A stretch of DNA of 64,000 nt from Mobula hypostoma (taxonomy: Eukaryota): the NCBI RefSeq assembly GCF_963921235.1, contig NC_086097.1, positions 95,730,001-95,794,000 on the forward strand. The letters run 5' to 3'. The notes below the pieces were generated by a model that was not told where the DNA came from, ran no database searches, and saw only the letters and a list, made by a program, of their open reading frames with translations. Of the stretch, positions 2,932 to 63,700 are shown one piece after another. The translations under genes were made by a program, and so were the position numbers. Numbering within the stretch: position 1 is the stretch's first letter; the number at the start of each line of letters is the position of its first letter.

Positions 2932-5900
2932 ATCATAAGATCACAAGATACAGCAGCAGAATTAGGCCATTTGGCCCATCGAGTCTGCTCCACCATTTCA
3001 TCATGGCTGATCCAATTTTCCTCTCAGCCCCAATCTTTTGCCTTCTCCCTGAATCCCTTCATGCCCTGACCAATCAAGAATCAATCAATCTCTGCCTTAA
3101 TCATTTAAACACATAAACACTTGGCTTTCCACGGCTGCCTGTGGCAAAGAATTCCTCAAGTTCACCACTCTTTGGAAGAAGAAATTCCTCCTCATCACCA
3201 CTCTAAAAAGAAGCCCCTTTATTCAGAGACTATGTCCTCTGGTCTTAGACACTCCCATCATAGGAAACATCCTCTCCACATCCACTCCATCAAGACCTTT
3301 CACCATTCGATAGGTTTCAATGACATCACCCTTCATTCTTCTGAATTCCAGTGAATACAGGCCATCAAATACTCTTCATATGACAAGCCATTCAATTCTG
3401 GAATCATTTTCGTGAATCTCCTTTGAACCCTCTCTAGTTTCAGCACATCCTTTCTAAGATAACGGCCCAAACCTGCTGACAATACTCCAAATGAGGACTT
3501 AGCAATGCTTTATTAAGTTTCAACATTACATCTTTGCTTTTATATTCTAGCCCTCGAGCTGAATGCTAACATTGCATTTACCCTCCTCACCCCAGCCTTA
3601 GCCTGCAAATAAACCTTTAGGGAATCCTACACAAGGACTCCCAAGTCTCTTTGCACTTAGGTTTTTTTTTGTATTTTCTCACCATTTAGAAAATGGCCAA
3701 CCCTTTCATTTCTTCTACCAAATTGTATGACCATACACTTCCTGACACTGTATTCCATCTGCCATTTCTTTGCCCATTCTCCTAATCTGTCTAAGTCCTT
3801 CTTCTAGCCTCTCTCCTTCCATAAAACGACCTCCCCCCTCCTCCTATCTTCATATCGCCTGCAAACTTTGCAAGAAAGCCATCAATTCCATCATCTAAAT
3901 CATTGACATATGATGTAAAAAGAATTGGTCCCAACACAGACCCCTGTGGAACACCACTACTCGCTGGCAGCCAACCAGAAAAGGTTCCCTTTATTCCCAC
4001 TCTCTGCCTCCTTCCAATCAGTCACTGCTTTATCCATGCTTGAATCTTTCCTGTAATACCATGGGCTCGTAGCTTGTTAAGCTGACTCATGTGTGGCACC
4101 TTATCAAAGGCCTTCTGAAAATCCAAGTACACAACATCAACCGATTCTCCTTTGTCTATCCTGCTTGTTATTTCCTCAAGGAGTTCCAACAGAGTTGTCA
4201 AGCAAGATTTTCCTTTGAGAAAACCATGCTGACTTTAGCCTATTTTATCATGTGCCTCCTATTATGCTGAAACCTCATCCTTAATAATCGACTCCAACAT
4301 CTTCCCAACCACTGAGGTCAAACTAACAGGCCTATAGTTTCCTTTCTTCTGCCTCTCTCTTCTTGAAGAGTGGAGTGACATTTGCAATTTTCCAGTCTTC
4401 CAGAACCATTCCAGAATCTAGTGATTCTTGAACGATCATTACTATGCCTCCACAATCGCTTCAGCCACCTCTTACAAAACTCTGGAGTGTACGTCATCTG
4501 GTCCAGGTGACTTCATCTACTTTCAAACCTTTCAGTTTGCCAAGAACCTTCTCTCTAGTTAGGTCACACGTTTCATGCCCCGCTGATACCTGGAACTTCG
4601 ACCATACTGGTAATGTCTTCCACAGTGAAGACAAATACAAATTAATTATTCAGTTCATCTGCCATTTCATTGTCCCACATTACTACTTCTCCAGGATCAT
4701 TTTCCAACAGTTCCATATCCACTCTTGCCTCTCTCTTACACTTTATATATCTGAAGAAAATTTTGATGTCCACTTTAATAGTACTGGCCAGCTTACTTTC
4801 ACATTTCATCTTTGCCTTCTTAATTACTTTTTTAGTTGCCTTCTTTTGGTTTTTAAAAGCTTCCCAATCCTCTAACTTCCCAATAATATTTGGCCTATTA
4901 TATGCCCTCTCTTTAGGTTTTATGTTGGCTTTGACTTGTTTGCCACAGTTGTGTCATCTTTCCTTCAGGATACTTCTTCCTCTTTGGGATATATACATCC
5001 TGCACCTTCTGAATTGCTTCCAGAAATTCCAGCCATTGCTGCTCTGCCATCATCCCTGCCAGTGTTCTTTTCTAATCAATTCTGGCCAACTCCTCTCTCA
5101 TGCCTCAGTAATTCCCTTTAGTCCACTGTAATACTGATAAATATGACTTTAATTTCTCCTTCTCAAATTTCAGGGTAAATGTGATCATATTATGATCACT
5201 TCTCCTAAGGGTTCTTTTACCTTAAACTCTCTAATCAATTCCGGTTCATTGCACAACACCCAATCCAGAATACCTGATCCTCTAGCGGGCTCAACCATGA
5301 GTTGCTCTCAAAAGCCATCTTATAGGCACTCTAGAAATTCCCCCTCCTGTAATCCGGCACCAACCTGATTTCCCAATCTACATGCATATTGAAGTCCCCC
5401 GTGACTATTGTAACATTGCCCTTTTTAACATGCGTTTTCTATCTCCCATTGTAATTTGTAGGCTGCATCCTTACTACTGTCATCAGGGTCTTTTTATCCA
5501 TAAGACCATAAGACAAAGGAGCAGAAGTCAGCCATTCGGCCCATCGAGTCTGCCCTGCCATTTTATCATGAGCTCATCCATTCTCCCATTTAGTCCCACT
5601 CTCCCACCTTCTCACCATAACCTTTGATGCCCTGGCTACTCAGATACCTATCAATCTCTGCCTTAAATACACCCAATGACTTGGCCTCCACTGCTGCCCG
5701 TGGCAACAAATTCCATAGATTCACCACCCTCTGGCTAAAAAAAATTTCTTCGCATCTCTGTTCTGAATGGGTGCCCTTCAATCCTTAAGTCATGCCCTCC
5801 CCCATCACGGGAAACAACTTTGCCACATCTACTCTGTCCATGCCTTTCAACATTCAAAATGTTTCTATGAGGTCCCCCCTCATTCTTCTAAACTCCAAGG

Positions 5901-8900
5901 AATACAATCCAAGAGCGGACAAACGGTCCTCATATGTTAACCCTCTCATTCCCGGAATCATTCTAGTGAATCTTCTCTGTACCCTCTCCAACGTTAGCAC
6001 ATCCTTTCTTAAATAAGGAGACCAAAACTGCCCACAGTACTCCAAGTGAGGTCTTACCAGCACCTTATAGAGCCTCAACATCACATCCCTGCTCCTATAC
6101 TCTATTCCTCTAGAAATGAATGCCAACATTGCATTTGCCTTCTTCACCACCGACTCAACCTGGAGGTTAACCTTAACGGTATCCTGCATGAGGACTCCCA
6201 AGTCCCGTTGCATCTCAGAACTTTGAATTCTCTCCCCATTTAAATAATAGTCTGCCCGTTTACTTCTTCTACCAAACTGCATAACCATACACTTTCCAAC
6301 ATTATATTTCATTTGCCACTTCTTTGCCCATTCTTCTAATCTATCCAAATCTCTCTGCAGACTCTCTGTTTCCTCAGCACTACCGGCCCCTCCACCTATC
6401 TTTGTATCATCAGCAAACTTAGCCACAAAGCCATCTATTCCATAATCCAAATCGTTGATGTACAACGTAAAAAAAAGCGGCCCAAACACAGACCACTGTG
6501 GAACACCACTGGTAACTGGCAGCCAACCAGAATAAGATCCCTTTATTCCCACTCTGTTTCCTGCCAATCAGCCAACGCCCTATCCACGTATATAACTTTC
6601 CCGTAATTCCATGGGCTCTTATCTTGTTAAGTAGCCTAATGTGTGGCACCTTGTCAAAGGCCTTCTGAAAATCCAAATATACAACATCCATTGCATCTCC
6701 CTTGTCTAGCCTACTTGTAATTTCCTCAAAAAATTGTAATAGGATTGTCAGGCAGGATTTTCCTTTAAGGAAACCATGCTGAGTTCTGCCTATCTTGTCA
6801 TATGCCTCCAGGTACTCTGTAACCTCATCCTTGACAATCGACTCCAACAACTTCCCAACCACCGATGTCAAGCTAACAGGTCTATAATTTCCTTTTTGCT
6901 TCCTTGCCCTTTCTTAAATAGCAGAGTGACATTTGCAATCTTCCAGTCCTCCGGAACCATGCCAGAATCTATCGACTTTTGAAAGATCATCGCTAATGCC
7001 TCTGCAATCTCCACAGCTACTTCCTTCAGAACACGATGGTGCATTCCATCTGGTCCGGGAGATTTATCTACCTTTAGACTATTCAGCTTCCTGAGTACTT
7101 TCTCTGTTGTAATTGTGACTGCGCACATTTCTCTTCCCTGCCACCCTTGAGTGTCCGGTATCCTGCTGATGTCTTCCTCAGTGAAGACTGATGCAAAATA
7201 CTCGTTCAGTTCCTCCGCCATCTCCTTATCTCCCATTATAATTTCTCCAGCATCATTTTCTATCGGTCCTATATCTACTCTTACCTGTCTTTTACTCATT
7301 ATATACTTGAAAAAGCTTTTAGTATCCTCTTTGATATTATTTGCTAGCTTCCTTTCATAGTTCATCTTTTCCCTCTTAATGACTTTCTTAGTTTCCTTTT
7401 GTAAGCTTTTAAAAACTTCCCAATCCTCTGTCTTCCCACTAATTTTTGCTTCCTTGTTTGCCCTCTCCTTTGCTTTAACTTTGGCTTTGACTTCTCTTTT
7501 GTCAGCCACGGTTGCATCCTTTTTCCATTCAAAAATTTCTTCTTTTTTGGAATATACCTGTCTTGCACCTTCCTCACTTCTTGCATAAACTCCAGCCACT
7601 GCTGCTCTGCCGTCCTTCCCGCCAGTGTCCCTTTCCAGTCAACTTTGGCCAGTTCCTCTCTCATGCCACTATAATTTCTTTTACTCCACTAAAATACCGA
7701 CACATCGGATTTCAGCTTCTCTTTTTCAAATTTCACAGTGAACTCAATCATGTTATGATCACTGTCTCCTAAGGGTTCCTTCACCTCAATCTCTCTAATC
7801 ACCTCCGGTTCATTACACAATACCCAATCCAGTACAGCCGATTCCCTAATGGCCTCAACAACAAGCTGTTCTAAAAAGCCATCTCGCAGATATTCTACAA
7901 ATTCTCTCTCTCGAGATCCAGTTCCGACCTGATTTTTCCAATCCACTCGTATGTTAAAATCCCCCACAATTATCATAACACTGCCCTTCTGACAAGCCTT
8001 TTCTATTTCCAGTTGTAATTTGTAGTCCACATCACTGCAGCTGTTTGGAGGCCTGTACATAACTGCCATCAGGGTCCTTTTACCCCCACGATTTCTTAGC
8101 TCAACCCATAAAGATTCTGCACCTTCCGATCCAATGTCACCTCTTTCTAATGATTTGATATCACTTCTTACCAATAAAGCCACGCCACCCCCTCTGCCTA
8201 CCTTCCTATCCTTCCGATACACCGTGTATCCTTGGACGTTCAGCTCCCAGAGACATGCATCCTTTAGTCAGGTCTCAGTGATGGCCACAATGTCATACCT
8301 GCCAACCTGTAGCTGTTCGACAAGATCATCCACCTTATTCCTTATGCTGCGTGCATTTAAGTATAACACCTTAAGACCAGAATTTGGTACTTTTCACTTT
8401 GATTGCACTGCAACTTTATTGCACTGCAACTCATCCCAATGGCTACAAATTTGCCCCATCACCTGCCTGTCTTTCCTGACATCTTTACTGCTCACTATCT
8501 TAGATTTATTTCTGTTTCCCCTTCCTCCGCTCTGTCATTCCGGTTCCCATCCCCCTGCCAAATTAGTTTAAACCCTCCGTAACAGCTCTATTAAACCTTC
8601 CTGCCATTTCCTTGCATTTCCTTAGCTCTATCCAGAATGATTCAACATCTTCTGACCCAACGTCACCTCTTTCCAATGTTTTGATTTCATTTTTTTTTAA
8701 CCAACAGAGCAACACCACCCTCTCTGCCTTCCTGCCTATCCTTTCAATACATTGTGTATCTTTGGACATTAAGTTCCCAGCTATAATCTTTCAGCCATGA
8801 TTCAGTGATGCCTACGACATCATACCTGCCAATCTGCAACTGTGCTGCAAGTTCATCTACCTTATTCCGTGTACTGCGTATATTCAGATACAACACTTTC

Positions 8901-24194: not shown

Positions 24195-25690
24195 TACCTG
24201 GAACAGTCAATGCTCCAAGCCTACACTGGTGTCACTTTTCCTACACTACACCGATGACTGCATTGGTGCGACTTCCTTCACCCATGCGGAACTCGTTGAC
24301 TTCATCAACTTTGCCTCCAACTTCCACCCTGCCTTCAAATTTACCTGGTCCATATCCGACATCTCCCTCCCCTTTCTCAATCTCACTGTCACTATCTCTG
24401 GAGACAGCTGGTATCTACTGATACCTTTTATAAACCCACTGACTCTTACAGCTACCTGGACTATACCTCTTCTCACCCTGTTAGTTGTAAAAATGCCACC
24501 CCCTTCTCTCAATTCCTCTGTCTCCGCCACACCTGCTCTCAGGATGAGGCTTTTCATTCTAGAACGAAGATGTCCTCCTTTTTCAAAGAAAGGGGCTTCC
24601 CTTCCTCCACCATCAACACTGCCCTCAACCACACCTCTTCCACTTCACGCACCCCATCCTCCCACCACCCTACCAGGGATAGGGTTCCTCTTGTCCTCAC
24701 CTACTACCCCACCAGCCTCTGCATCCAGCACATAAATCTCCATGACTTCCACCATCTCCAACTGGATCCCATCACCAAGCACATCTTTTCCTCTTCCACC
24801 CTCTCCCTCACTTTCTGCTTTCTGCAGGGATCGCTCCCTACGCGACTCCCTTGTCCATTTGCCCCACCCCACTGATCTTCCTCCTGGCACTTTTCCTTGC
24901 AAGCGGAACAAGTGCTACACCTCCTCTCTCACTACCATTCAGGGCCCCAAACAGTCCTTCGAGGTGTGGCGACACTTCACCTATGAGTCTGTTGGGGTCA
25001 TTTACTATATCCAGTGCTCCCGGTATGGCCCCTTGTATATTGGTGAGACTAGACGCTGATTGGGAGACTGCTTTGTTGAGAACCTACTCTCCGTCCATCA
25101 GAAAAAATGGGATCTCCCAGTGGCCACCCATTTCAATTCTACTTCCCATTCCCATTCCGATATGTCAGTCCACGGCCTCCTCTACTGTCGTGATGAGGCC
25201 ACACTCAGGCTGGAGAAGCAACACCTTACGTTCCATCTGGGTAGTCTCCAACCTGATGGCATGAACATTGATTTCTCAAACTTCCAGTAATGCCCTTCCC
25301 TTCATCAATCCTCATTCCCATTTCCCTCTCTCACCTTATCTCCATGCCTGGCCATCGCCCCTATCTGGTGCTCCTCCCTCCTTTGTCTCCCATGACCTTC
25401 TGTCCTCTCGTATTAGATTCCTCCTTCTCCAGCCCTGTACCTCTTTCACCAATCAACTTCCCAGCTCTTTACTTACCCCTCACCCCTCTCAGTTTCACCT
25501 TTCACCTTGTGTTTCTTCCTCCCCTCCCCCACTTTCTAGCTCTGACTCTTCAGCATTTTTCTCTCCAGTCCTGCTGAAGGGTCTCGGCCCGAAACGTCGA
25601 CTGTACTCTTTTCCATAGATGCTGCCTGGCCTGCTGAATTCCTCCAGCTTAGATTTCTAGTTTCTGCAGATTTACTCTTGTTTGTTACCA
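24195..25690 (+). mobile_element. Penelope-like element remnant (RT C-terminus, GIY-YIG endonuclease, pseudo-LTR with hammerhead motif)
   Basis: YTDDCIG RT motif (ORF 24229), VIYYIQC...LYIGETRR GIY-YIG motif (ORF 24742) and C-terminus LGSLQPDGMNIDFSNF. Hammerhead-like motif at 25566-25603 has a core change (CTGCTGA). Confidence 0.88.
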
Positions 25691-34101: not shown

Positions 34102-34694
34102 GCAGACACGAGGAAATCTGCAGATGCTAGAAGTTCAAGCAACACACACAAAAACTGCTGGTGAACGCAGCAGGCCAGGCAGCATCTCTAGGAAGAGGTA
34201 CAGTCGACGTTTCAGGCCGAGACCCTTCGTCAGGACTAACTGAAGGAAGAGCTAGTAAGAGATTTGAAAGTGGGAGGGGTTGGGGGAGGGGGAGATCCAA
34301 AATGATAGGAGAAGACAGGAGGGGGAGGGATGGAGCCAAGAGCTGGAGAAGGGAGAGGATCAAGGGACAGGAAGCCTGGGGAGAAAGAGAAGGGGGGAGG
34401 GGAGCCCAGAGGTGGAGAGCAGGCAAGGAGTTATAGTGAGAGAGACGGAGGGAGGAAAAAGAGAGAGAGATAAAAAAGGGGGGGAATAAAAAATATATTA
34501 AAGAAATAAATAAGGGATGGGATGTGAAGGGGAGGAGGGGGATTAACGGAAGTTAGAGCCTCCCACTTTCAAATCTCTTACTATCTTTTCTTTCAGTTAG
34601 TCCTGACGAAGGGTCCCAGCCTGAAACATCGACTGTACCTCCTCCTATAGATGCTGCCCGGCCTGCTGCGTTCACCAGCATTTTTTGTGTGTGT
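34102..34694. mobile_element. Inverted pair of Penelope pseudo-LTRs (fold-back insertion) with 14-bp TSD
   Basis: Left arm is minus-oriented and right arm plus-oriented. Flanks are TACTTCATGAAAGT (34088-34101) and TACTTCATAAAAGT (34695-34708). Confidence 0.85.
34202..34237 (-). ncRNA. Minimal type I hammerhead ribozyme motif (Penelope-associated), intact core
   Basis: Minus strand reads AGUC-CUGACGA-AGGGUCUCGGCCU-GAAAC-GUC-GACU: helix I AGUC/GACU, CUGANGA and GAAA boxes, helix II AGG/CCU, palindromic ACGU and a GUC cleavage triplet. Confidence 0.8.
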
Positions 34695-35763
34695 TACTTC
34701 ATAAAAGTAACTGGCCCAAAGTATGAAAACAGTAAGATGTTGTTATATAAAGCAGAAAATTTGAATGGCTTAAGATGGTGCTGAGCTGTGACCTCCATTA
34801 GGAGGTTTTTTGTGGAATTTTTGGGATCCGATTATTATATAAATGGTGAAAGATTGTGGCATGCTGTTCTGCAAAGAGACTGGGGAGTACTTGTGCATGA
34901 ATCACAAAGATGGTTGGCAGGTACAACAGGTTATCAGGAGGAGATTAAATGTTGGTCTTCATGCTAGAGGAATTGAATTTTGAAGTTTTGTTTCAACTGT
35001 ACACGGTACTGGTGAGGCTACACCTGGTGTACTGAGTACTATTCTGGTCTCTTTACTTGTGGAAAAATACACCGACTTTGGAGGCGGTGCAAAGGAGGTT
35101 CACCAGACTGATCGTTGCGATGAAGGGATTAGCTTACGAGAAGAGATTGGAATTCAGAGGAATAAAGGGATAAAAAATATCTATAAAATTATGAAAGGAA
35201 CAGAATAATAAAATTATAAGACAGAAGCAGGCAAGTTGTTTCCATTAGTAGAGACTAGAACTAGGAGATAGAGACTCAAGATTCAGGACTAGATTTAGGA
35301 TGCAGATGGAACTGCTTTTCCCAGAGAATAATGAAACTGTGTAATTCTCTGCAGCAGTAGAGGTTACCTCATTAAATATTTAATATTACGTGGAGAGGCC
35401 AGATAAATGGACCTATGTACATGGCCAGATATGCCATGACATCACTGAATGTCAGTGCAGGCTCAATGGGCCAGGTGGCCTAGTCCTCCTTAAGTTCTTA
35501 TGAGTGTCACATGCATATCCTCTTACAAATTGCTTTCAGAAACAATATGAGACAGGAACTTTGACCTATTCCCTCTCCCTTGTCCAGGGACTAGTTAATT
35601 TACCCGTGGCCGGTGTGTTGGACGGTGAGTCAATGCCCGGTGAACGGTATAGTTCAATGGTGGCTCAGAGCGGCAGACAAACTGCTGGCATCTAATACAA
35701 ACGACTGAAATGTCTACATAGAAACATGACAGATGATAAATGCTTGCTGAAGCTGACTCTTAC

Positions 35764-40563: not shown

Positions 40564-43500
40564 TTACAGACAGCACTCCTGCTTGCCCCCTCCCCGGTTA
40601 CAGAGAGCCCTCCCCCTTGCCCTCTCCCTGGTTACAGACAGCACTCCCCCTTGCCCCCTCCCCGGTTACAGAGAGCCCTGCTTGCCCCCTCCCCGGTTAC
40701 AGAGAGCCCTCCCGCTTGTCCTCTCCCCGGTTACAGAGAGCCCTCCCGCTTGTCCTCTCCCTGGTTACAGACAGCACTCCCGCTTGCCCCCTCCCCGGTT
40801 ACAGAGAGCCCTCCCGCTTGTCCTCTCCCCGGTTACAGAGAGCCCTCCCGCTTGCCCCCTCCCCGGTTACAGAGAGCCCTCCCCCTTGCCCCCCCCCCGG
40901 TTACAGAGAGCACTCCCCCTTGCCCCCTCCCCAGTTACAGAGAGCCCTCCTTGCCCCCTCCCCGGTTACAGAGAGCCCTCCCGCTTGCCCCCTCCCCGGT
41001 TACAGAGAGCCCTGCTTGCCCCCTCCCCGGTTACAGAGAGCCCTCCCGCTTGCCCCCGTCCGGGTTACAGAGAGCCCTCCCGCTTGTCCTCTCCCCGGTT
41101 ACAGAGAGCCCTCCCGCTTGTCCTCTCCCCGGTTACAGAGAGCCCGCCCCCTTGCCCCCTCCCCAGTTACAGAGAGCCCTGCTTGCCCTCACCCCGGTTA
41201 CAGAGAGCCCTCCCGCTTGCCCTCCCCGGTTACAGAGAGCCCTCCCGCTTGCCCTCTCCCGGTTACAGAGAGCCCTCCCCCTTGCCCCCTCCCCAGTTAC
41301 AGAGAGCCCTCCCGCTTGCCCCCTCCCCAGTTACAGAGAGCCCTCCCGCTTGTCCTCTCCCCGGTTACAGAGAGCCCTCCCGCTTGTCCTCTCCCCGGTT
41401 ACAGAGAGCCCTCCCGCTTGTCCTCTCCCCGGTTACAGAGAGCCCTCCCGCTTGTCCTCTCCCCGGTTACAGAGAGCCCTCCCGATTGCCCCCTCCCCGG
41501 TTACAGAGAGCACTCCCCCTTGCCCCCTCCCCGGTTACAGAGAGCCCTGCTTGCCCCCTCCCCGGTTACAGAGAGCCCTCCCGCTTGTCCTCTCCCCGGT
41601 TACAGAGAGCCCTCCCCCTTGCCCTCTCCCCGGTTACAGAGAGCCCTCCCGCTTGTCCTCTCCCCGGTTACAGAGAGCCCTCCCGCTTGTCCTCTCCCCG
41701 GTTACAGAGAGCCCTCCCGATTGCCCCCTCCCCGGTTACAGAGAGCACTCCCCCTTGCCCCCTCCCCGGTTACAGAGAGCCCTGCTTGCCCCCTCCCCGG
41801 TTACAGAGAGCCCTCCCGCTTGTCCTCTCCCCGGTTACAGAGAGCCCTCCCGCTTGTCCTCTCCCTGGTTACAGACAGCACTCCCGCTTGCCCCCTCCCC
41901 GGTTACAGAGAGCCCTCCCGCTTGTCCTCTCCCCGGTTACAGAGAGCCCTCCCGCTTGCCCCCTCCCCGGTTACAGAGAGCACTCCCCCTTGCCCCCTCC
42001 CCAGTTACAGAGAGCCCTCCTTGCCCCCTCCCCGGTTACAGAGAGCCCTCCCGCTTGTCCTCTCCCCGGTTACAGAGAGCCCTCCCTCTTGCCCCCTCCC
42101 TGGTTACAGAGAGCCCTCTTGCATGCCCCCTCCCCAGTTACAGAGAGCCCTCCCACTTGCCCTCTCCGGGTTACAGATAGCCCTCCGGATTGCCCCCTCC
42201 CCGGTTACAGAGAGCCCTCCCGCTTACCCTCTCCCCGGTTACAGACAGCCCTCCCGCTTACCCTCTCCCTGGTTACAGACAGCCCTCTCGCTTGCCCCCT
42301 CCCCAGTTACAGAGAGCCCTGCTTGCCCCGTCCCCGGTTACAGAGAGCCCTCCCGCTTGTCCTCTCCCCGGTTACAGAGAGCCCTCCCGCTTGCCCCCTC
42401 CCCGGTTACAGACAGCCCGCCCCCTTGCCCCCTCCCCGGTTACAGAGAGCCCCGCTTGCCCTCCCCGGTTACAGAGACCCCTCCCGATTGCCCCCTCCCC
42501 GGTTACAGAGAGCCCTCCCGATTGCCCCGTCCCCAGTTACAAAGAGCCCTGCTTGCCCTCTCCCCGGTTACAGAGAGCCCTGCTTGCCCCCTCCCCGGTT
42601 ACAGAGAGCCCTCCTGTTGGCCCTCTCCCCGGTTATAGAGAGCCCTCCCGCTTGCCTTCTCCCGGTTACAGAGAGCCCTCCCGCTTGTCCCCTCCCTGGT
42701 TACAGAGAACCCTCCCGCTTGTCCCCTCCCCGGTCACAGAGAGCCCTCCCGCTTGCCCTCTGCCCGGTTATAGAGAGCCCTCCCCCTTGCCACCTCCCCG
42801 GTTACAGAGAGCCCTGCTTGCCCCCTCCCCAGTTACAGAGAGCCCTCCCGCTTGCCCTCCCCGGATACAGAGAGCCCTCCCGCTTGCCCCCTCCCCGGTT
42901 ACAGAGAGCCCTCCCCCTTGCCCTCTCCCCGGTCACAGAGAGCCCTCCCGCTTGCCCTCTCCCAGTAACAGAGAGCCCTCCCGCTTGCCCTCTCCCCGGT
43001 TACAGAGAGCCCTCCCCATTGCCCCATCCCCGGTTACAGAGAGCCCTCCCGCTTGCCCCCTCCCCGGTTACAGAGAGCCCTGCTTGCCCCCTCCCCGGTT
43101 ACAGAGAGCCCTCCCGCTTGCCCCCTCCCCGGTTACAGAGAGCCCTCCCGCTTGCCCCATCCCCGGTTACAGAGAGCCCTCCCGCTTGCCCCCTCCCTGG
43201 TTACAGAGAGCCCTGCTTGCCCCCTCCCCGGTTATAGAGAGCCCTCCCGCTTGTCCTCTCCCCGGTTACAGAGAGCCCTCCCGCTTTCCCCCTCCCCGGT
43301 TACAGAGAGCCCTCCCCCTTGCCCCCTCCCCGGTTACAGAGAGCCCTGCTTGCCCCCTCCCCGGTTACAGAGAGCCCTCCCACTTGCCCCCTCCCCAGTT
43401 ACAGATAGCCCTCCCCCTTGCCCCTTCCCCGGTTACAGAGAGCCCTGCTTGCCCCCTCCCCGGTTACAGAGAGCCCTCCCGCTTGTCCTCTCCCCGGTTA

Positions 43501-46500
43501 CAGAAAGCCCTCCCGCTTGCCCCCTCCTCGGTTACAGAGAGCCCTCCCGCTTGTCCTCTCCCCGGTTACAGAGAGCCCTGCTTGCCCCCTCCCCAGTTAC
43601 AGAGAGCCCTCCTGCTTGCCCCCGTCCGGGTTACAGAGAGCCCTCCCGCTTGCCCTCTCCCCGGTTACAGAGAGCCCTCCCGCTTGCCCCCTCCCCGGTT
43701 ACAGAGAGCCCTCCCGCTTGCCCCCTCCCCGGTTACAGAGAGCCCTCCCGCTTGCCCTATGCCCGGTTACAGAGAGCCCTCCCGCTTGCCCCCTCCCCGG
43801 TTACCGAGAGCCCCGCGTGGCCCCCCCCCGGTGACAGAGAGCCCCCCCGCTTGCCCCCGTCCGGGTTACAGAGAGCCCTCCCGCTTGTCCTCTCCCCGGT
43901 TACAGAGAGCCCTCCCGCTTGTCCTCTCCCCGGTTACAGAGAGCCCGCCCCCTTGCCCCCTCCCCAGTTACAGAGAGCCCTGCTTGCCCTCACCCCGGTT
44001 ACAGAGAGCCCTCCCGCTTGCCCTCCCCAGTTACAGAGAGCCCTCCCGCTTGCCCTCTCCCGGTTACAGAGAGCCCTCCCCCTTGCCCCCTCCCCGGTTA
44101 CAGAGAGCCCTCCCGCTTGCCCCCTCCCCAGTTACAGAGAGCCCTCCCGCTTGTCCTCTCCCCGGTTACAGAGAGCCCTCCCGCTTGTCCTCTCCCCGGT
44201 TACAGAGAGCCCTCCCGCTTGTCCTCTCCCCGGTTACAGAGAGCCCTCCCGCTTGTCCTCTCCCCGGTTACAGAGAGCCCTCCCGATTGCCCCCTCCCCG
44301 GTTACAGAGAGCACTCCCCCTTGCCCCCTCCCCGGTTACAGAGAGCCCTGCTTGCCCCCTCCCCGGTTACAGAGAGCCCTCCCGCTTGTCCTCTCCCCGG
44401 TTACAGAGAGCCCTCCCGCTTGTCCTCTCCCTGGTTACGACAGCACTCCCGCTTGCCCCCTCCCCGGTTACAGAGAGCCCTCCCGCTTGTCCTCTCCCCG
44501 GTTACAGAGAGCCCTCCCGCTTGCCCCCTCCCCGGTTACAGAGAGCACTCCCCCTTGCCCCCTCCCCAGTTACAGAGAGCCCTCCTTGCCCCCTCCCCGG
44601 TTACAGAGAGCCCTCCCGCTTGTCCTCTCCCCGGTTACAGAGAGCCCTCCCTCTTGCCCCCTCCCTGGTTACAGAGAGCCCTCTCGCAGGCCCCCTCCCC
44701 AGTTACAGAGAGCCCTCCCACTTGCCCTCTCCGGGTTACAGATAGCCCTCCGGATTGCCCCCTCCCCGGTTACAGAGAGCCCTCCCGCTTACCCTCTCCC
44801 CGGTTACAGACAGCCCTCCCGCTTACCCTCTCCCTGGTTACAGACAGCCCTCTCGCTTGCCCCCTCCCCAGTTACAGAGAGCCCTGCTTGCCCCGTCCCC
44901 GGTTACAGAGAGCCCTCCCGCTTGTCCTCTCCCCGGTTACAGAGAGCCCTCCCGCTTGCCCCCTCCCCGGTTACAGACAGCCCGCCCCCTTGCCCCCTCC
45001 CCGGTTACAGAGAGCCCCGCTTGCCCTCCCCGGTTACAGAGACCCCTCCCGATTGCCCCCTCCCCGGTTACAGAGAGCCCTCCCGATTGCCCCGTCCCCA
45101 GTTACAAAGAGCCCTGCTTGCCCTCTCCCCGGTTACAGAGAGCCCTGCTTGCCCCCTCCCCGGTTACAGAGAGCCCTCCTGTTTGCCCTCTCCCCGGTTA
45201 TAGAGAGCCCTCCCGCTTGCCTTCTCCCGGTTACAGAGAGCCCTCCCGCTTGTCCTCTCCCTGGTTACAGAGAGCCCTCCCGCTTGTCCCCTCCCCGGTC
45301 ACAGAGAGCCCTCCCGCTTGCCCTCTGCCCGGTTATAGAGAGCCCTCCCCTTGCCACCTCCCCGGTTACAGAGAGCCCTGCTTGCCCCCTCCCCAGTTAC
45401 AGAGAGCCCTCCCGCTTGCCCTCCCCGGATACAGAGAGCCCTCCCGCTTGCCCCCTCCCCGGTTACAGAGAGCCCTCCCCCTTGCCCTCTCCCCGGTCAC
45501 AGAGAGCCCTCCCGCTTGCCCTCTCCCAGTAACAGAGAGCCCTCCCGCTTGCCCTCTCCCCGGTTACAGAGAGCCCTCCCCATTGCCCCCTCCCCGGTTA
45601 CAGAGAGCCCTCCCGCTTGCCCCCTCCCCGGTTACAGAGAGCCCTCCCGCTTGCCCCATCCCCGGTTACAGAGAGCCCTCCCGCTTGCCCCCTCCCCGGT
45701 TACAGAGAGCCCTCCCGCTTGCCCCCTCCCCGGTTACAGAGAGCCCTCCCGCTTGCCCCATCCCCGGTTACAGAGAGCCCTCCCGCTTGCCCCCCGCTTG
45801 CCCCCTCCCCGGTTACAGAGAGCCCTGCTTGCCCCCTCCCCGGTTATAGAGAGCCCTCCCGCTTGTCCTCTCCCCGGTTACAGAGAGCCCTCCCGCTTTC
45901 CCCCTCCCCGGTTACAGAGAGCCCTCCCCCTTGCCCCCTCCCCGGTTACAGAGAGCCCTGCTTGCCCCCTCCCCGGTTACAGAGAGCCCTCCCACTTGCC
46001 CCCTCCCCAGTTACAGATAGCCCTCCCCCTTGCCCCTTCCCCGGTTACAGAGAGCCCTCCCGCTTGTCCTCTCCCCGGTTACAGAAAGCCCTCCCGCTTG
46101 CCCCCTCCTCGGTTACAGAGAGCCCTCCCGCTTGTCCTCTCCCCGGTTACAGAGAGCCCTGCTTGCCCCCTCCCCAGTTACAGAGAGCCCTCCTGCTTGC
46201 CCCCGTCCGGGTTACAGAGAGCCCTCCCGCTTGCCCTCTCCCCGGTTACAGAGAGCCCTCCCGCTTTCCCCCTCCCCGGTTACAGAGAGCCCTCCCCCTT
46301 GCCCCCTCCCCGGTTACAGAGAGCCCTGCTTGCCCCCTCCCCGGTTACAGAGAGCCCTCCCTCTTGCCCCCTCCCCAGTTACAGATAGCCCTCCCCCTTG
46401 CCCCTTCCCCGGTTACAGAGAGCCCTGCTTGCCCCCTCCCCGGTTACAGAGAGCCCTCCCGCTTGTCCTCTCCCCGGTTACAGAAAGCCCTCCCGCTTGC

Positions 46501-47150
46501 CCCCTCCTCGGTTACAGAGAGCCCTCCCGCTTGTCCTCTCCCCGGTTACAGAGAGCCCTGCTTGCCCCCTCCCCAGTTACAGAGAGCCCTCCTGCTTGCC
46601 CCCGTCCGGGTTACAGAGAGCCCTCCCGCTTGCCCTCTCCCCGGTTACAGAGAGCCCTCCCGCTTGCCCCCTCCCCGGTTACAGAGAGCCCTCCCGCTTG
46701 CCCCCTCCCCGGTTACAGAGAGCCCTCCCGCTTGCCCTCTGCCCGGTTACAGAGAGCCCTCCCGCTTGCCCCCTCCCCGGTTACAGAGAGCCCTGCTTGC
46801 CCCCTCCCCGGTTACAGAGAGCCCTCCCGCTTGCCCCCGTCCGGGTTACAGAGAGCCCTCCCGCTTGTCCTCTCCCCGGTTACAGAGAGCCCTCCCGCTT
46901 GTCCTCTCCCCGGTTACAGAAAGCCCTCCCCCTTGCCCCCTCCCCGGTTACAGAGAGCCCTGCTTGCCCCCGTCCCGGTTACAGAGAGCCCTCCCACTTG
47001 CCCTCTCCCGTTACAGAGAGCCCTCCCGCTTGCCCCCTCCCCGGTTACAGAGAGCCCTCCAGATTGCCCCGTCCCCGGTTACAGAGAGCCCTCCCGCTTG
47101 CCCTCTCCCCGGTTACAGACAGCTCTCCCGTTTGCCCCCTCCCCGGTTAC
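40564..47150. repeat. Intronic minisatellite, 34-bp consensus GGTTACAGAGAGCCCTCCCGCTTGCCCCCTCCCC with a 31-bp variant, roughly 195 copies
   Basis: Directly visible tandem array of about 6.6 kb; copy number estimated from length divided by unit size. It abuts the exon at 47151. Confidence 0.98.
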
Positions 47151-47277
47151 CTGATGTGGGTTGCTGGTAGGGACTCCAGCTGCCGTGACAGGAAGAGCTC
47201 GCGGTGTTTCAGCTGGTGCCGCTCGTTCTCAGAAAGTTCCTGCAGCTCTCCATTTTCCATCTCCTCTTCTACTTCCT
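47151..47277 (-). CDS. MTA1: MTA1-like NuRD subunit, internal coding exon (127 bp, BAH domain)
   Basis: Translates to EVEEEMENGELQELSENERHQLKHRELFLSRQLESLPATHI(R), the MTA-family BAH motif. Acceptor ...CCGCACAG|, donor CAG|GTAACC. EEEMEN and QLES are MTA1-type residues. Family is certain, paralog assignment less so. Confidence 0.93.
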
Positions 47278-48372
47278 CTGTGCGGAGATCAAAAACATGG
47301 GGTCAACACAATCAGCTTCTGCACTTCCAAAATGTTACCCAGTTCTCAAATCAGCTCGCATGTTGCCCTACCAAAAATTAACAAAACAGAAGTGCAGAGG
47401 TGTCAGCCATGATTTTGTTACCAGCCAACTGGTCAACTTCTGTGTGAAGACTTGCTGCTGTGAGTGAGTCTAAATTCACACAAAACCAGACATGAACCAC
47501 TAGTTCTGTGTCCCTGCCTGTGAATGTCAGCTGGGTACAATTTCATCCCACGTTTTACTTGAATCACCAGAATGGAGGAGGTCTCTCGGGCTATCTGGTG
47601 TCTGCCGTCTCCCGAGGAGCAATCCCAACAGTTCTGTTCACTCCTTTCTAATTTTCCTGCACCCCTGCATCTTATTGTCTCCCACATGCCCATCATTTTC
47701 CCCCATTGCACTCTTTTGCCACTTATCCACACTGAGGGAGAATTTGCAACACATGCATCAGCCAACAAAATTCCAAACCTGTATACTGCATTCAGACATC
47801 ATAAATATGATTTTTTACACTGCAGACATAAAACCCAGATTGGGCGATTACTTTGTGGGATCTCTGCATTCATCCACAGGACTGACCCTGAGCTTCTAGT
47901 TGCCTGTTGATTTTGTTTTTCATTTCACTGCCACTGGGATCTGCCTGCCTGCTGCCTTCCAGAATGATAGATTGAGAGCCCACACAGGCTTGAGCAACAA
48001 CACCACATCTTCTGGAGACACAAGAGACTGCACATGCTGGAAATTTGGACCAAGACATAGGAGCTGTAGGAACTCAGGATTGATGAAGGGTCTTGATCCA
48101 AAACATTAATAGTTCATTTCCTTGCATAGATGCTGCCTCACCCACTGAGTTCCTCTAGCTCCTTTATGTGTAACCTTCTGTCTTTTGGACTATTTCTCCA
48201 AGTTTCAGTAACTTGCTCTTTTCACTCTGTCTGTATCAGCACTGGCCATTTTTGAAAATTGTCGATCTGTGACTTTTATGCAGTTTTCCTCTCCATCAGT
48301 ATAGTATTATGTGCTGGATGGGTCCCACAACCCTGCCATCTGCAACGCATAAACAGACAAAAGCATAATCTG

Positions 48373-48609
48373 AGCAACACACATCAAAGTTGCTGGTGAA
48401 CGCAGCAGGCCAGGCAGCATCTGTAAGAAGAGGTACAGTCGACGTTTCAGGCCGAGACCCTTCGTCAGGACTAACGAAGGGTCCTGACGAAGGGTCTCGG
48501 CCTGAAACGCCGACTGCACCTCTTCCTACAGATGCTGCCTGGCCTGCTGCGTTCACCAGCAACTTTGATGTGTGTTGCTTGAATTTCCAGCATCTGCAGA
48601 CTTCCTGTT
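48373..48609. mobile_element. 237-bp palindromic non-coding Penelope-derived element with two opposed hammerhead motifs and a perfect 14-bp TSD
   Basis: Arms of about 100 bp (48373-48471 and 48481-48579) are near-perfect inverted repeats. AAAAGCATAATCTG occurs at 48359-48372 and 48610-48623. Confidence 0.92.
48437..48472 (-). ncRNA. Minimal type I hammerhead ribozyme motif, intact core
   Basis: Same 36-nt sequence as 34202-34237 on the minus (host-transcribed) strand, with CUGACGA, GAAAC and GUC. Confidence 0.8.
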
Positions 48610-50684
48610 AAAAGCATAATCTGCTTCTAATTGCACCAATAATCTATTTTATCTCACCTCATCATTAATGTTTTCCCTGTTCTGTCCATCTCTTCCCCCA
48701 TCCTCTCTGCTACTGAAAACTAACCCTCCTTCTAATTCACCCTTCTCTTTCCACAGACATTGCCTAACCAGCTGAACAATTACAGTTGCTTTTATTTATT
48801 TCAGATTTCCATTGTCTGCAGGGTTCTCTTGCTGCATTTTCAATTAATGTTTTGGGACAAGGAAAGCTAACTTGACCTTCCCCTCTCCTCACCAATCTGC
48901 CTGTTGCAGGCTTAACTTTACAGGAGTAACAGCCAGCCAGTCCATGTGGATTCAAGGGCCAACTTCTATACTCACCATTATCCCATGTGGCAATACCACC
49001 CGCTTAGTAGTAAGATTCTAACTGAGATTGGAAAGACACTGTCACTGTGACCTACCACGTCAAGGGCTTTAAACCAGGCCACAGAGGAGTACAAACTAAG
49101 ATCACAAAGGCATCAGAATTGGTAACAGGGCATGTGCTCTGTTTTCAAAATCAAGGCTGGTCTTATAACTCCACTCCTTTCTCCTTTTCCTTCATGCTCT
49201 TGAATAAGGAATTCAACCCACTCTTGAATAAATTCAACAAGTTATTGTCCGTAACTTCAGTAGAAAAAATTCCAAAGCTTAAAAATTCTGTGAATTTTGT
49301 ACTTCAAACCAAATTGGACCACTAAGTCTTGACCCCAAGCTCTCAACTTTCCATTCACAGAAAAGAGTCTTTCAGGTCTACCTGGTTACACTAACAAAGA
49401 ATTGTACACATTTCGGTGAACTTACTCCTCATTGCTTTAAACTCTACAAATTACCTGTTCTTCTCAATCTCCCCCATGAAACAACTGTGTCGTTTTAAGT
49501 ATTCCTTTCTGTAAACAAGACCAGACCTATCCATGGTGGCACAGCTGTGCTCTACTTGCAACAAGACTTCCCAGGAAAAAAAACAGTAAATTGTCACTAC
49601 ATTGTCTTCAAAGCAAGAATACCCTTGTCATAATGAGACCAAAAACACTAGGCCATTTTACCAAAGCCCCTTGCAACCATAAGATGACTACCTTAATCCT
49701 ATAACTTCAATCTCCTTATTAACTTCAATCTCCTTATTATCTCCTTCAATCTCCATTTGTTTAATTGTACCTGCATATTAACTTTAAGATTCATATGTAA
49801 GAATCCAAATCTTTGACTATAAACATCTCAGAGTGCTCAAAGTTTTTCAGAAATTCTGCATTTGTATTCTTCCTTTTAAAATAGGTAACCTCGCGCCTCC
49901 ACATGTCATACACCATTTCCCACTTTTTTCCTCATTTAACCAACCTGTGTACCTTTCTCCCAACTCCACCCTTGCTCCTCCCTCACCTGGCTCAACCTGC
50001 TTGTCAGTCTTCACCTCTCCTTGGTCCCCCATTTAGCTCTGGTACCCACCCATCTCACCACTTCCCCTCTCCTCTTTATACTGGACATCTCCTCAATCCT
50101 GATGTAGGGTTTTCACCTGAAATGTTAACAACAGCTCTCCCAACTACAGATGCTGCTTGACCCACTGAGTTCTTCCAAAAGATTCTATGTTTCAGCTTCC
50201 AGCATTTACAGCCTCTTGTGTGTTGTGTTTTTTAATACCTTAGCAGCAGTTCAACTTGCCACCCGTTACCATATCCCACATTTATCATTTGTAAACCTGA
50301 AAACATTATTCTTGGTTCTCTCTGTTAATTTAGTGAAATAGACTGTAAACAATCAAAACCCACATTTTTAATTTTGTGGCAACCCTATAAGCTCCATTCT
50401 GATTCCTAAGTACTTATTTATTCCTAAATATTTATTCAGATTTCTGGCCAGGCTAATATATTAACCACAATCCCGTGAACATTAATCATGTTAATAACTT
50501 CATGTGTAGCACTTTAATTATATTTTCTGAATATGCAAAACTACTTTGCAATAGACCATAAGAATTAGGCCATTCAGCCCATTGATTCTGCTCCACTTTT
50601 TCATCATGGTTGATCCATTTGCCCTCTTAACCCCATTCTACAAGACCATAAGACGTACAGACAGAATTAGGCCATTCAGCCAGT

Positions 50685-54524: not shown

Positions 54525-55436
54525 CCCCACTCTTTCGGCTTTCCGCAGGGATCGCTCCCTACACGACTCCCTTGTCCATTCGTCCCCCCCCAACCCTTCC
54601 CACCGATCTCCCTCCTGGCACTTATCCCTATAAGCAGAACAAGTGCTACACCTGCCCTTACACTTCCTCCCTCACCACCATTCAGGGCCCCAGACAGTCC
54701 TTCCAGGTGAGGCAACACTTCACCTGTGAGTCGGCTGGGGTGATATACTGCGTTCGGTGCTCCCAATGTGGCCTTTTATATATTGGCGAGACCCGACACA
54801 GACTGGGAGATTGTTTTGCTGAACACCTACGCTCTGTCTGCCAGAGAAAGCAGGATCTCCCAGTGGCCACACATTTTAATTCCACATCCCATTCCTATTC
54901 CGACATGTCTATCCACGGCCTCCTCTACTGTCAAGGTGAAGCCACACTCAGGTTGGAGGAACAACACCTTATATTCCATCTGGGTAGCCTCCAACCTGAT
55001 GGCGTGAACATTGATTTCTCTAACTTCCGTTAATGCCCCTCCTCCCCTTTTTACCCCATCCCTTATTTATTTATTATTCCCTCTCTCGCCACCCTTTTTT
55101 CTCCTCTCTGTCCCTCTCACAATCACTCCTTGCCTGTTCTCCATCTTCCTCTGGGCTCCCCCTTTCTTTCTCCCTAGGCCTCCCATCCCATGATCCTCCC
55201 CCTTCTCCAGCTCCGTATCCCTTTTGCCGATCAACTTTCCAGCTCTTAGCTTCATCCCTCCCCTCTCCTGTCTTCTCCTATCATTTCGGATCTCCCCCTC
55301 CCCCTCTCAAATCCCTTACTATCTCTTCTTTCAGTTAGTTCCGACGAAGGGTCTCGGCCTGAAACGTCGACTGTACTTCTTCCTATAAGATGCTGCCTGG
55401 CCTGCTGCATTCCACTAGCATTTTGTGTGTGTTGCT
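54525..55436 (+). mobile_element. 5'-truncated Penelope-like element (GIY-YIG domain + pseudo-LTR) with a perfect 13-bp TSD, inserted in a V-SINE
   Basis: ORF 54473..55033 reads FTCESAGVIYCVRCSQCGLLYIGETRHRL...EHLRSV. AGAAGCTCTACTT occurs at 54512-54524 and 55437-55449. Hammerhead-like motif at about 55337-55372 has CCGACGA. Confidence 0.92.
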
Positions 55437-55689
55437 AGAAGCTCTACTTGTTGTGTCACTATGCAATCAAATTAAAAGGACAGCAAGGTAAAGCTGCAAT
55501 GCAGGGCGATGTACGTGCATTCTAAGCAGCATATCCAAAGCAAAATAGAGTGCCAAGCGATCTCACAATCAACGTACGAGATCAGAGTTCTGTAATTCCG
55601 TCAGTCATGAATGGCAGTGGTCTTCTAAGGAGCGAATGGGGGAGGAGTGTCCAAGAAGATCTTCATCTTCCATGATGACAGGGCCCAGC

Positions 55690-60764: not shown

Positions 60765-63700
60765 TTCCTAGACGGCTTTCTTGAACTGCATGTTACTGAA
60801 CTACAAGGAAATGTGCTGTCTTAGATCTGGTCCTGTGCAATGAGACAGGTATAATTCGTGATCTTGTAGTTAGAGATCCTCTTGGAAAGAGTGATACAGT
60901 ATGATTGAGTTTCTCATACAAATGGAGGGTGCAATAGTTCGGTCGAAAACCAGTGTATTATGTCTAAACAACGGAGACTACAATGGGATGAGGGAGGATT
61001 TCTATAATGTAGACTGGGAACACAGGCTATATGGTGGACGGTTGAGGAACAGTGGAAGACTTTCAAAGAGATTTTTCACAAAACTCAACAGGAGTATATT
61101 CCAGTTAAAAGCTCGTGCGTATAAACCACTAAGCGAGCAATAAAGAAAGGGAAGATAGATTATGAAAATAAACTAGTACAAAATATAAAAATGGATAGTA
61201 AAAGTTTGTATCATTATATAAAGCGGAAAAGGGTGGCTCAAGTGAACATGGGTCCCTTTGAGGACGAGAAGTGGGGGGGGGCTTGATATTGGGTAATGAG
61301 GAAATGGCAGAGGCTTTGAATGACTATTTTGTGTCGGTCTTTATGGTGGAGGGCATGTCTACATGCCAAATGGAGATGTTATGGATGTGATGGGCGGAGA
61401 GGACCTCATTAGCTATCACTAAAGAGATAACGTTGAGCAAACTTGTGAGCCTGAAGATTGATAAGTCCCCTGGTCCTGATGAAAGAAGTGGCAAAAGTTA
61501 TAGTAGAGGCTTTGGTGATAATTTACCATAATTCTCTGGACTCTTGGGCAGGTCCTGGCAGATTGGAAAACGGCGATTGGCACACCACTGTTCAAAAAAG
61601 GATGTAGGCAAAAGGCAGGTAACTATAGGCCACACACATAAAATGCTGGTGGAACACAGCAGGCCAGGCAGCATCTATAGGAAGAAGCACAGTAGACGTT
61701 TTGGGCTGGGACCCTTCGTCAGGATTAACTGAAAGAAGAGATAGTAACAGATTTGAAAGTGGGAGGGGGAGGGGTGGAGCTAAGAGCTGGAAAGTTGATC
61801 GGCAAAAGGGATACAGAGCTGGAGAAGGGGGAGGATCATGGGACGGGCAGCCTGGGGAGAAAGAAAGGGGGAGGGGAGCCCAGAGGAAGCTGGAGAGCAG
61901 GCAAGGAGTTATTGTGCAGAGGGACAGAGGGAGAAAAAGAGAGAGAAAAAAAGGGGGATAATAAATAAATAAGGGATGTGATAAGAAGGGGAGGAGGGGG
62001 CATTAAAGCAAGTTAGAGAAATCAATGTTCATGCCATCAGGTTGGAGGCTACCCAGACGGAATATAAGGTGTTGTTCCTCCAACCTGAGTGTGGCTTCAT
62101 CTTTACAGTAGAGGAGGCCGTGGATAGACATGTCAGAATGGGAATGGGATGTGGAATTAAAATGTATGGCCACTGGGAGATTCTGCTTTCTCTGACGGAC
62201 AGAGCATAGGTGATGGCATGAATATCCAAACTGATGGCATGAATATTCCGTCTTGGTAGCCTCCAACCTGATGGCATGAACATTGATTTCTCTAACTTCC
62301 AATAATGCCCCTCCTCCCCTTATCCCATCCCTTATTTATTATTTCCTCCCCCCTTTTTTCACTCATTTTTTCTCTCTCTCTGTCCTTCTCACAATCACTC
62401 CTTGCCTGTTCTCCATCTTTCTCTGGGCTCCCCTCCCCCTTTCTTTCTCCCTAGGCCTCCCATCCCATGATCCTCCCCCTTCTCCAGCTCTGTATCCCTT
62501 TTGCCAATCAACTTTCCAGCTCTTAGCTTCATCCCTCCCCCTCCTGTCTTCTCCTATCATTTCAGATCTCCCCCTCCCACCTTCAAATCTCTTACTATCT
62601 CTTCTTTCAGTTAGTCCTGACAAAGGGTCTCGGCCCTAAACGTCAACTGTCCCTCTTCCTATAGATGCTGGCCTGCTGCGTTCCACCAGCATTTTGTATG
62701 TGTTGCTTGAATTTCCAGCATCTGCAGATTTTCTCGTGTTTGCGTTTAACTATAGACCAGTTAGTTAACATCTGTAATTGGGAAAATTTTTGAATATATC
62801 ATTAAAGAAGAAATAGCAGAAGAAATGGACCATCAGGCAGACACAGCATGGAGTCAGCAAAAGCTGGTCCTGTTTGACAAACTTACTGAAGTTCTTTGAG
62901 AATATAATGGGCGCAGTGCATAGAGGGGAACAGATGGATGTTATTTACTTGGATTTCCAGAAGGCGTTCGATAAGGTGCCACATGAAAGACTTAACTGTA
63001 AGATAAGGATGCATAGATTTTGGGGTGATGTATTAGCATGGATAGAGGATTGGTTAACTAATAGAAAGCAGAGAGTTGGGAAACATGAGTGTTACCCTGG
63101 TTGGTGATCAGTGGTGAGTGGTGTGCCGCAGGGGTCGGTGCTGGGCCTGCAACAGTCCACAATATACATTAACGATCTGGAAAAGGAGACCAAGTGTAGT
63201 GTATCTAAGTTGGCTGATAATACTGAATTGAATGGAAAAGCAAATTGTGCAGAAGATACAGAGACTCTGCAGAGAGATATAGATAGGTTAAGTGAGTGGG
63301 CAAGGGTCTAGCAGATCGAGTACAATGTTGGCAAATGAGAGGTCATCCACTTTGGAAGGAAAAATGGAAGATCAGATTATTATTTAATGGTAGAAGATTG
63401 CAGCATGCTACTGTGCAGAGGGACTTGGGAGTGCTTGTGCATGAATCACGAAAGGTTGGTTTGCAGGTGCAGCAGGCTGTCAAGAAGGCAAATGGGATGC
63501 TGGCCTTCATTGCTAGAGAGATTGAATTTAACAGCAGGGAGGTAATGCTGCAACTGTACAGGTGAGGCCACACCTGGAGTACTGTGCGCAGTTCTGGTCT
63601 CCTTACTTGAGGAAGGATATACTGGCTTTGGAGGTGGTGCAGAGAAAGTTCACTAGGTTGATTCCAGAGATGAGGGGGTTAGATTATGAGGAAAAATTGA

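Follow-up and report, generated by a model that had tools for sequence, protein, structure and literature searches.

A short head-to-head insertion in Mobula hypostoma and its probable origin in the integration step of a Penelope-like element

Introduction

An inverted, 5′-truncated copy together with a one-sided tail of 30-40 bp is typical of insertions of Penelope-like elements (PLEs), and the formation of their tandem and inverted structures has been named an open mechanistic question (PMC8557442). Here we describe an insertion at positions 48359-48623 of a window of 64,000 nt from Mobula hypostoma (contig NC_086097.1, 95,730,001 to 95,794,000, forward strand), this window being the whole stretch of DNA analysed and the reference for all coordinates without a locus name. 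An earlier note had described the insertion as a palindrome of two back-to-back hammerhead ribozyme (HHR) modules, representing either the minimal product of a Penelope insertion or a self-propagating ribozyme-hairpin family.

With Pen2a_Av of Adineta vaga (PMC3846280) and the general PLE layout (PMC8557442), the insertion shares the head-to-head inverted pseudo-long terminal repeat (pLTR), the one-sided tail (30 nt here) and the target-site duplication (TSD), and also an HHR motif in the pLTR, a partial-tandem parent and short palindromes at the inversion junction (PMC3846280, PMC8557442). The layout of an inverted pLTR plus tail is therefore already published for PLEs. In contrast to Pen2a_Av, the element body is wholly lost here, the arms measure about 100 nt, and the TSD comprises 13-15 nt instead of the 8-10 nt in A. 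vaga (PMC3846280). The copy number is huge by comparison, with more than 1,300 short pairs and about 95,000 core motifs, so that the insertion ends become statistically measurable. The coupling of the arm lengths reported below is mildly new.

The minimal type I hammerheads of metazoan PLEs (PMC4209133) resemble those of the insertion in the absence of loop 3, a palindromic ACGU at helix III, a short helix I and an extra nucleotide before helix II, which has 4 bp here in contrast to 7-8 bp in the Schistosoma families (PMC4209133). Dual minimal HHRs on opposite strands, about 100-700 bp apart, have already been noted (PMC4209133), whereas only about 15 nt separate the two cores here. The green anole Poseidon element PAc (PMC11167929) has in common with the family studied here a tail delimited by two fixed end sites with a spacing of about 30-35 nt, AT-rich targets, no clear target-RNA homology and an HHR in the pLTR. 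Unlike Penelope and Poseidon elements, the parent in our study carries a CX2-5CxxC linker, and the passages considered here from PMC11167929 contain no model for an inverted arm. Animal non-LTR retrozymes (bioRxiv 10.64898/2026.07.22.740005) are likewise short and non-coding, with a type I HHR and an origin in a PLE pLTR. They form head-to-tail tandems with at least two HHRs on the same strand, whereas the insertion is arranged head-to-head, has one HHR per strand and does not appear to be copied as a unit. Classification as a retrozyme was rejected on the tandem arrangement.

Results

The insert of 237 nt is enclosed by identical direct repeats of 14 nt (48359-48372 and 48610-48623). It consists of two inverted arms of 99 nt (48373-48471 on the minus and 48481-48579 on the plus strand), which differ at three positions and are separated by a centre of 9 nt (48472-48480). 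A further 30 nt (48580-48609, plus strand) stand outside the right arm only. The near-perfect arms of about 100 bp and the centre of about 9 nt described in the earlier note were confirmed, but because of this one-sided tail, which the note had missed, the insert is not a pure palindrome. The left, tail-less arm comprises the pLTR from the hammerhead core to an inner end site, +99 from the start of the core, and the right, tailed arm comprises the pLTR from the core onward. All three arm mismatches are transitions, a number too small to read a footprint of A-to-I editing. No open reading frame of at least 150 aa overlaps the insert, in line with the lack of coding capacity already noted. The plus-strand fold of the insert reaches -204.3 kcal/mol (z -26), a value equalled by none of 200 shuffles.

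The perfect TSD of 14 bp was corroborated by the empty site, at which 48358 is joined directly to 48610 with one TSD copy in single contigs from organism B (two runs of one sample, X5 and X6) and organism D (run X13). In the window's own organism, contigs (X1, X2) extend across each of the two outer junctions, and none covers the whole insert. Given the empty site with a single TSD copy in these relatives, the insertion is genuine and took place after the split from organisms B and D. Contigs of three runs guessed as RNA (X17, X20, X15) cover the repeat family and hardly the unique flanks; they show no strand, ends or editing and are thus neutral on expression.

The 14-nt core motif of the arms occurs 94,687 times as an exact match in the 3.5-Gb genome, compared with 28 occurrences of the reversed control. 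Parent copies were found by a search with the C-terminal GIY-YIG peptide of a second insertion in the window (61629-62760) and contain open frames of up to 828 aa. The arm of the insertion is 96-99% identical to the 3′ pLTR of three of these copies, L118 to L120, whose frames measure 678-828 aa. The frame of 828 aa in L118 contains DKG at residue 233, the reverse transcriptase (RT) motifs A and B at 375 and 436, YIDD at 474 and GVIY..YIG at 731. A CX4CX2C linker is located at residue 695 between the RT and the endonuclease (EN), and a CSRC within the GIY-YIG core plus two downstream histidines constitute a CCHH motif. In a comparison with Pfam, RVT_1 was matched with an E value of 4e-5, under the curated cut-off. 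The identity of the endonuclease rests on motifs, because it had no Pfam match; a PDB sequence search with the same frame yielded 0 matches.

Among 30 loci with a long tail, the tail continues into a shared 5′ region in nine, and in four of these nine the continuation reaches the L118 body about 610 nt further on. A tail extended into the 5′ region of the element, as in full-length copies, is present in L204, L206, L218, L227 and L228. L228 is a natural partial tandem with pLTR plus tail at 2022-2150, a body extending to 5535 and a second pLTR at 5539-5635; L229 is built alike. The arm is the pLTR end of an abundant EN-bearing PLE, because it matches the 3′ ends of coding copies, the tail continues into the body, and L228 displays the order of pLTR plus tail, body and pLTR. 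According to the motif definitions in PMC8557442, CCHH denotes two cysteines between GIY and YIG, and a CX2-5CxxC linker is present in Neptune and Nematis but not in Penelope and Poseidon. By these definitions the parent is classified as an EN-bearing PLE of the Neptune or Nematis type, Penelope and Poseidon being excluded by the linker.

Back-to-back core pairs were counted genome-wide by the length of their centre, yielding 1,341 pairs for 0-30 nt, 798 for 31-60 nt and 146 for 301-330 nt, and pairs whose arms extend 1-1.8 kb upstream were also found. The insertion thus belongs to the shortest class in a continuous, falling size series of inverted PLE insertions. Together with the pLTR origin of the arms, the one-sided tail and the TSD, this series upholds the first of the two readings in the earlier note, and the insert is almost certainly a stump formed de novo by a PLE.

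The second reading, according to which the 237-bp hairpin is transcribed and reinserted as a unit by the PLE protein, would make it a self-propagating, non-autonomous palindromic ribozyme element. It is compatible with the short class being the peak of the size series, and the pLTR is reported to suffice by itself for being mobilised in trans (PMC3846280). Of 52 sampled pairs, 36 have two intact cores, 11 have one and 5 have none, and the exact junction of the insertion has 22 matches genome-wide, with a different target for each inspected copy. These matches amount to only about 1.6% of the short class (22 vs 1,341), and 39 distinct centres were counted by eye among the first 50 places listed for the class of 0-30 nt. 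One match lacks an inverted arm; the other 21 are split 13 to 8 by the side that bears the tail. They belong to several subfamily haplotypes, with the arms matched within each copy.

The comparison of arms was based on 67 loci, of which 7 duplicates and 8 without a parsable junction were removed, leaving 52, or 51 for distances once a copy belonging to another family was left out. At subfamily sites, agreement between the two arms of a copy was found in 51/52, 49/52, 48/51, 48/51 and 45/49 cases, where 28, 21.7, 27, 31 and 30 were expected. The distance between the arms is 3.5% within copies and 6.2% when permuted, a difference not reached in any of 10,000 permutations. Letter frequencies in tailed and tail-less arms are alike at all 12 variable columns, and a fixed difference between left and right arms was not observed. 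A unit would keep one side for the tail and inherit arm-specific changes, and neither is seen; the junction, the orientation of the asymmetric part and the lack of arm-specific inherited changes argue that the insertion does not belong to a SINE- or MITE-like family copied as a unit. In addition, the hairpin of -204 kcal/mol would enclose both the ribozyme and the region at which the RT starts. Taken together, we regard a self-propagating element as largely refuted and highly improbable for this locus. The genome-wide junction count proposed in the earlier note as a test for a family did show recurrence, but it would have misled, given the two tail sides, the several haplotypes and the matched arms.

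The first 4 nt of the centre extend the left arm into native upstream sequence, and the remainder repeats 5 nt of the hammerhead core (13-nt near-repeat D4). A subfamily with a native upstream sequence one base shorter was considered as the source of the centre and rejected, since this form runs on into the element body 6 times, as opposed to 43,738 times for the native form. We infer that the repeat of 5 nt represents a templated slip at joining, which would explain why some junctions recur. The centre also bears on the possibility that a longer inverted PLE insertion lost its middle by a later deletion. Long palindromes are unstable and longer pairs do exist, but the centre contains an added, apparently templated piece instead of a clean deletion, and short pairs appear as young as long ones (86-98% and 79-98% identity to the reference copy, respectively). 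A secondary deletion is therefore scarcely credible.

The geometry of the family was assessed in 79 unselected stretches around consecutive core matches, which yielded 27 inverted pairs and 57 solo arms; the latter number includes arms whose partner lacks a core or lies beyond the fetched range, and the two arms of L135, which contains an inner insert. Exactly one arm carries the tail in 25 of the 27 pairs, neither arm in two and both in none. Where the lengths differ by more than 30 nt, the longer arm is the tail-less one in 8 and the tailed one in 3 of 25 pairs. A simple copy-back of a tailed cDNA (complementary DNA) fails here because the tail-less arm is often longer. In L131 and L135, the arms of a long, almost symmetric inverted pair are separated by other sequence of about 1.1 kb and 0.4 kb, respectively. 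L232 (G000:C1:46045500-46050000) contains three pLTR units in head-to-tail order at a spacing of about 435 nt, each of which includes the core, the tail, a 5′ region of about 180 nt and the 3′ region; similar arrangements were observed in L208/L209, L211 and L226. A same-strand hammerhead tandem of the L232 type would be a retrozyme by arrangement and could form a dimeric ribozyme.

End sites were determined from 79 candidate pairs, 60 of which were scored and 41 were clean. The TSD measures 13-15 nt in 36 of the 41 clean copies and has an AT content of 71%. End positions are +94 to +101 for the tail-less arm (36/41) and +128 to +138 for the tailed arm (41/41). Similar GU-rich words are found at both end sites of the insertion on the sense RNA (48373-48382 and 48600-48609; TGTGTTGC and TGTTGTTTGC in longer tails), and these words may act as a start signal for reverse transcription.

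As stated in the earlier note, one CUGACGA...GAAAC core is present per strand, with the triplet GUC on the minus and GCC on the plus arm. The motif of the minus arm (48437-48472, minus strand) consists of stem I with 4 bp, CUGACGA, an extra A, stem II with 4 bp starting with a G-U pair, GAAAC and GUC; its core is intact, its layout agrees with the one in PMC4209133 apart from the G10.1-C11.1 pair, and a cut is predicted between 48441 and 48440. The plus-strand motif (48480-48515) is predicted to be inactive due to a change of U16.1 to C at 48510, a position occupied by U in 101 of 104 sampled arms. The conserved core of CUGANGA, GAAA and NUH with helices I and II is found in the minus arm only. 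The G10.1-C11.1 pair, which is highly conserved according to PMC4209133, is replaced by G-U in both arms, as in 90 of 103 sampled arms in the register with the extra nucleotide. A search with hammerhead models, proposed in the earlier note, did not support the assignment: an Rfam scan of 47000-50000 with E values up to 10 yielded no hammerhead match and seven chance-level matches to other families. The hammerhead call therefore rests on motif matching to the published description of minimal HHRs.

The expectation that either strand yields a hammerhead held for the sequence and not for the predicted fold. Each strand carries a single sense motif, and on either strand of the palindrome the antisense arm is transcribed ahead of the core. 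In growing transcripts the hammerhead fold would cost 40-44 kcal/mol on the plus and 50-53 kcal/mol on the minus strand, compared with 7.5-8 kcal/mol for L119 and L120 in their native pLTR context. The hairpin is thus predicted to bury the ribozyme on either strand. Because of this cost of 40-53 kcal/mol, the insert, if transcribed, is predicted to form a double-stranded RNA (dsRNA) hairpin of 99 bp and not a ribozyme. A single minimal HHR motif did not cleave and dimers showed low cleavage (PMC4209133), and minimal HHRs have been reported to require a dimer (PMC4209133) or the protein of the element (PMC11167929). The insert is likely a dead end.

Further copies of the family are found in the window. 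Two longer inverted insertions are located at 34111-34699, where the arms extend beyond the core by about 260 and 41 nt in the upstream direction and the left arm has the tail, and at 61629-62760, where the left arm encodes the C-terminus of a GIY-YIG endonuclease (62006-62203, minus strand). An older and decayed copy from a related pLTR family lies about 200 nt to the left of the insertion (48025-48163) and comprises an inverted tail piece, a core-like piece and a piece of the 3′ arm (repeats D1, I2 and I3). Solo copies without inversion, belonging to this pLTR or a related one, are present at 55343-55440 and 25568-25636 and retain upstream body over about 800 and 1,100 nt, respectively. Apart from this family, a GC-rich minisatellite of 6.6 kb (40564-47150; 34-nt unit, about 197 copies, 87% match) accounts for long open frames at 40.5-47.4 kb, and four of these frames that were tested had no Pfam match. 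An RT fragment at 5854-6567 (minus strand; Pfam RVT_1, E value 4e-9) probably belongs to a broken LINE unrelated to the insertion.

Discussion

We propose that the insertion was probably formed by priming from both target ends at two fixed sites of the RNA, followed by end-joining. In this process, the RT-endonuclease of the element would make a staggered cut of about 14 nt in AT-rich DNA, and both freed 3′ ends would prime reverse transcription on the element's RNA. Priming at the outer site (+128 to +138) would give rise to the tailed arm, and priming at the inner site (about +97) to the tail-less arm. Both cDNAs would halt, in a coupled manner, just past the hammerhead core, and their inner ends would be joined by repair via self-complementarity of 1-5 nt or a short templated slip. 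Priming from both ends would result in the head-to-head layout, the single tail and the TSD. In vitro, both strands of the target were cut and extended by a purified PLE protein, and reverse transcription began at two sites of the RNA, which form the boundaries of the tail; the protein is a predicted dimer, and HHR cleavage was not needed (PMC11167929).

A paper on this PLE family or on priming from both ends for PLEs was not found, although supplements, subscription journals or Repbase could hold one. In LINE-1 twin priming, both target ends prime cDNA, which leads to an inversion within the TSD composed of pieces from different parts of one RNA, whereas both arms duplicate the same 3′ part from two fixed sites here.

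Several observations weigh against priming from both target ends. The arm lengths are coupled (Spearman 0.76; 14 of 25 pairs within 30 nt as compared with 6.6 expected), which argues against two independently truncating cDNAs, since independent truncation would not produce such coupling. The strands did not differ visibly in their start site in PMC11167929. The junctions cluster at short self-complementary words, a pattern interpreted as self-priming in PMC3846280. Microhomology at the outer ends averages 1.3 and 0.9 nt and is not clearly above chance, the null of 0.3-0.4 having counted one of two ambiguity directions. The arms of the insertion itself differ at one subfamily-variable site (column 37), the samples for the arm comparison were partly picked for similarity to this copy, and the matching of arms could be partly due to gene conversion between them after insertion. 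Furthermore, the mechanism is derived from end products, with no intermediate seen.

Coupled lengths fit equally well with a fold-back mechanism, which was put forward in the Discussion of PMC3846280. The stump of the PLE would then have gained its second arm by self-priming: one nascent strand, or alternatively an antisense RNA, would fold back where a short word is self-complementary and be copied back, with the endonuclease trimming the tail from one arm afterwards. The centres, which are often short perfect hairpins or palindromic words, and the near-identity of the arms of a copy at subfamily sites are in accordance with this route. Without trimming, fold-back needs a longer tailed arm, which is at odds with the excess of longer tail-less arms (8/25 vs 3/25). 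It is also countered by the extension of both target strands in vitro and by the finding that both tail boundaries are RT start sites (PMC11167929). We therefore consider fold-back rather unlikely. Any model must account for coupled arm lengths together with the fact that either arm can be the longer one. The more than 2,000 short pairs with sharp ends provide material to tell priming from both ends and fold-back apart.

As a single object the insertion is ordinary, being the dead stump of a retroelement from a known class, and its value is statistical. Two cautions follow from its analysis: the recurrence of a junction does not prove that a family propagates itself, and such stumps may be mistaken for MITEs, microRNA hairpins or retrozymes. 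With about an even chance of being right, we suggest that these mirror-image stumps, in their thousands, preserve the Penelope insertion step like fossils. In this step, an RT-endonuclease acting as a dimer would prime from the two cut target strands on one and the same RNA, using two fixed sites, and would halt the two cDNAs jointly, in many cases shortly after the hammerhead. If true, this dimer model would account in a single step for the inverted pLTR, the tail on one side and the coupling of the arm lengths, and the element would seed its host with ready-made dsRNA hairpins against itself.

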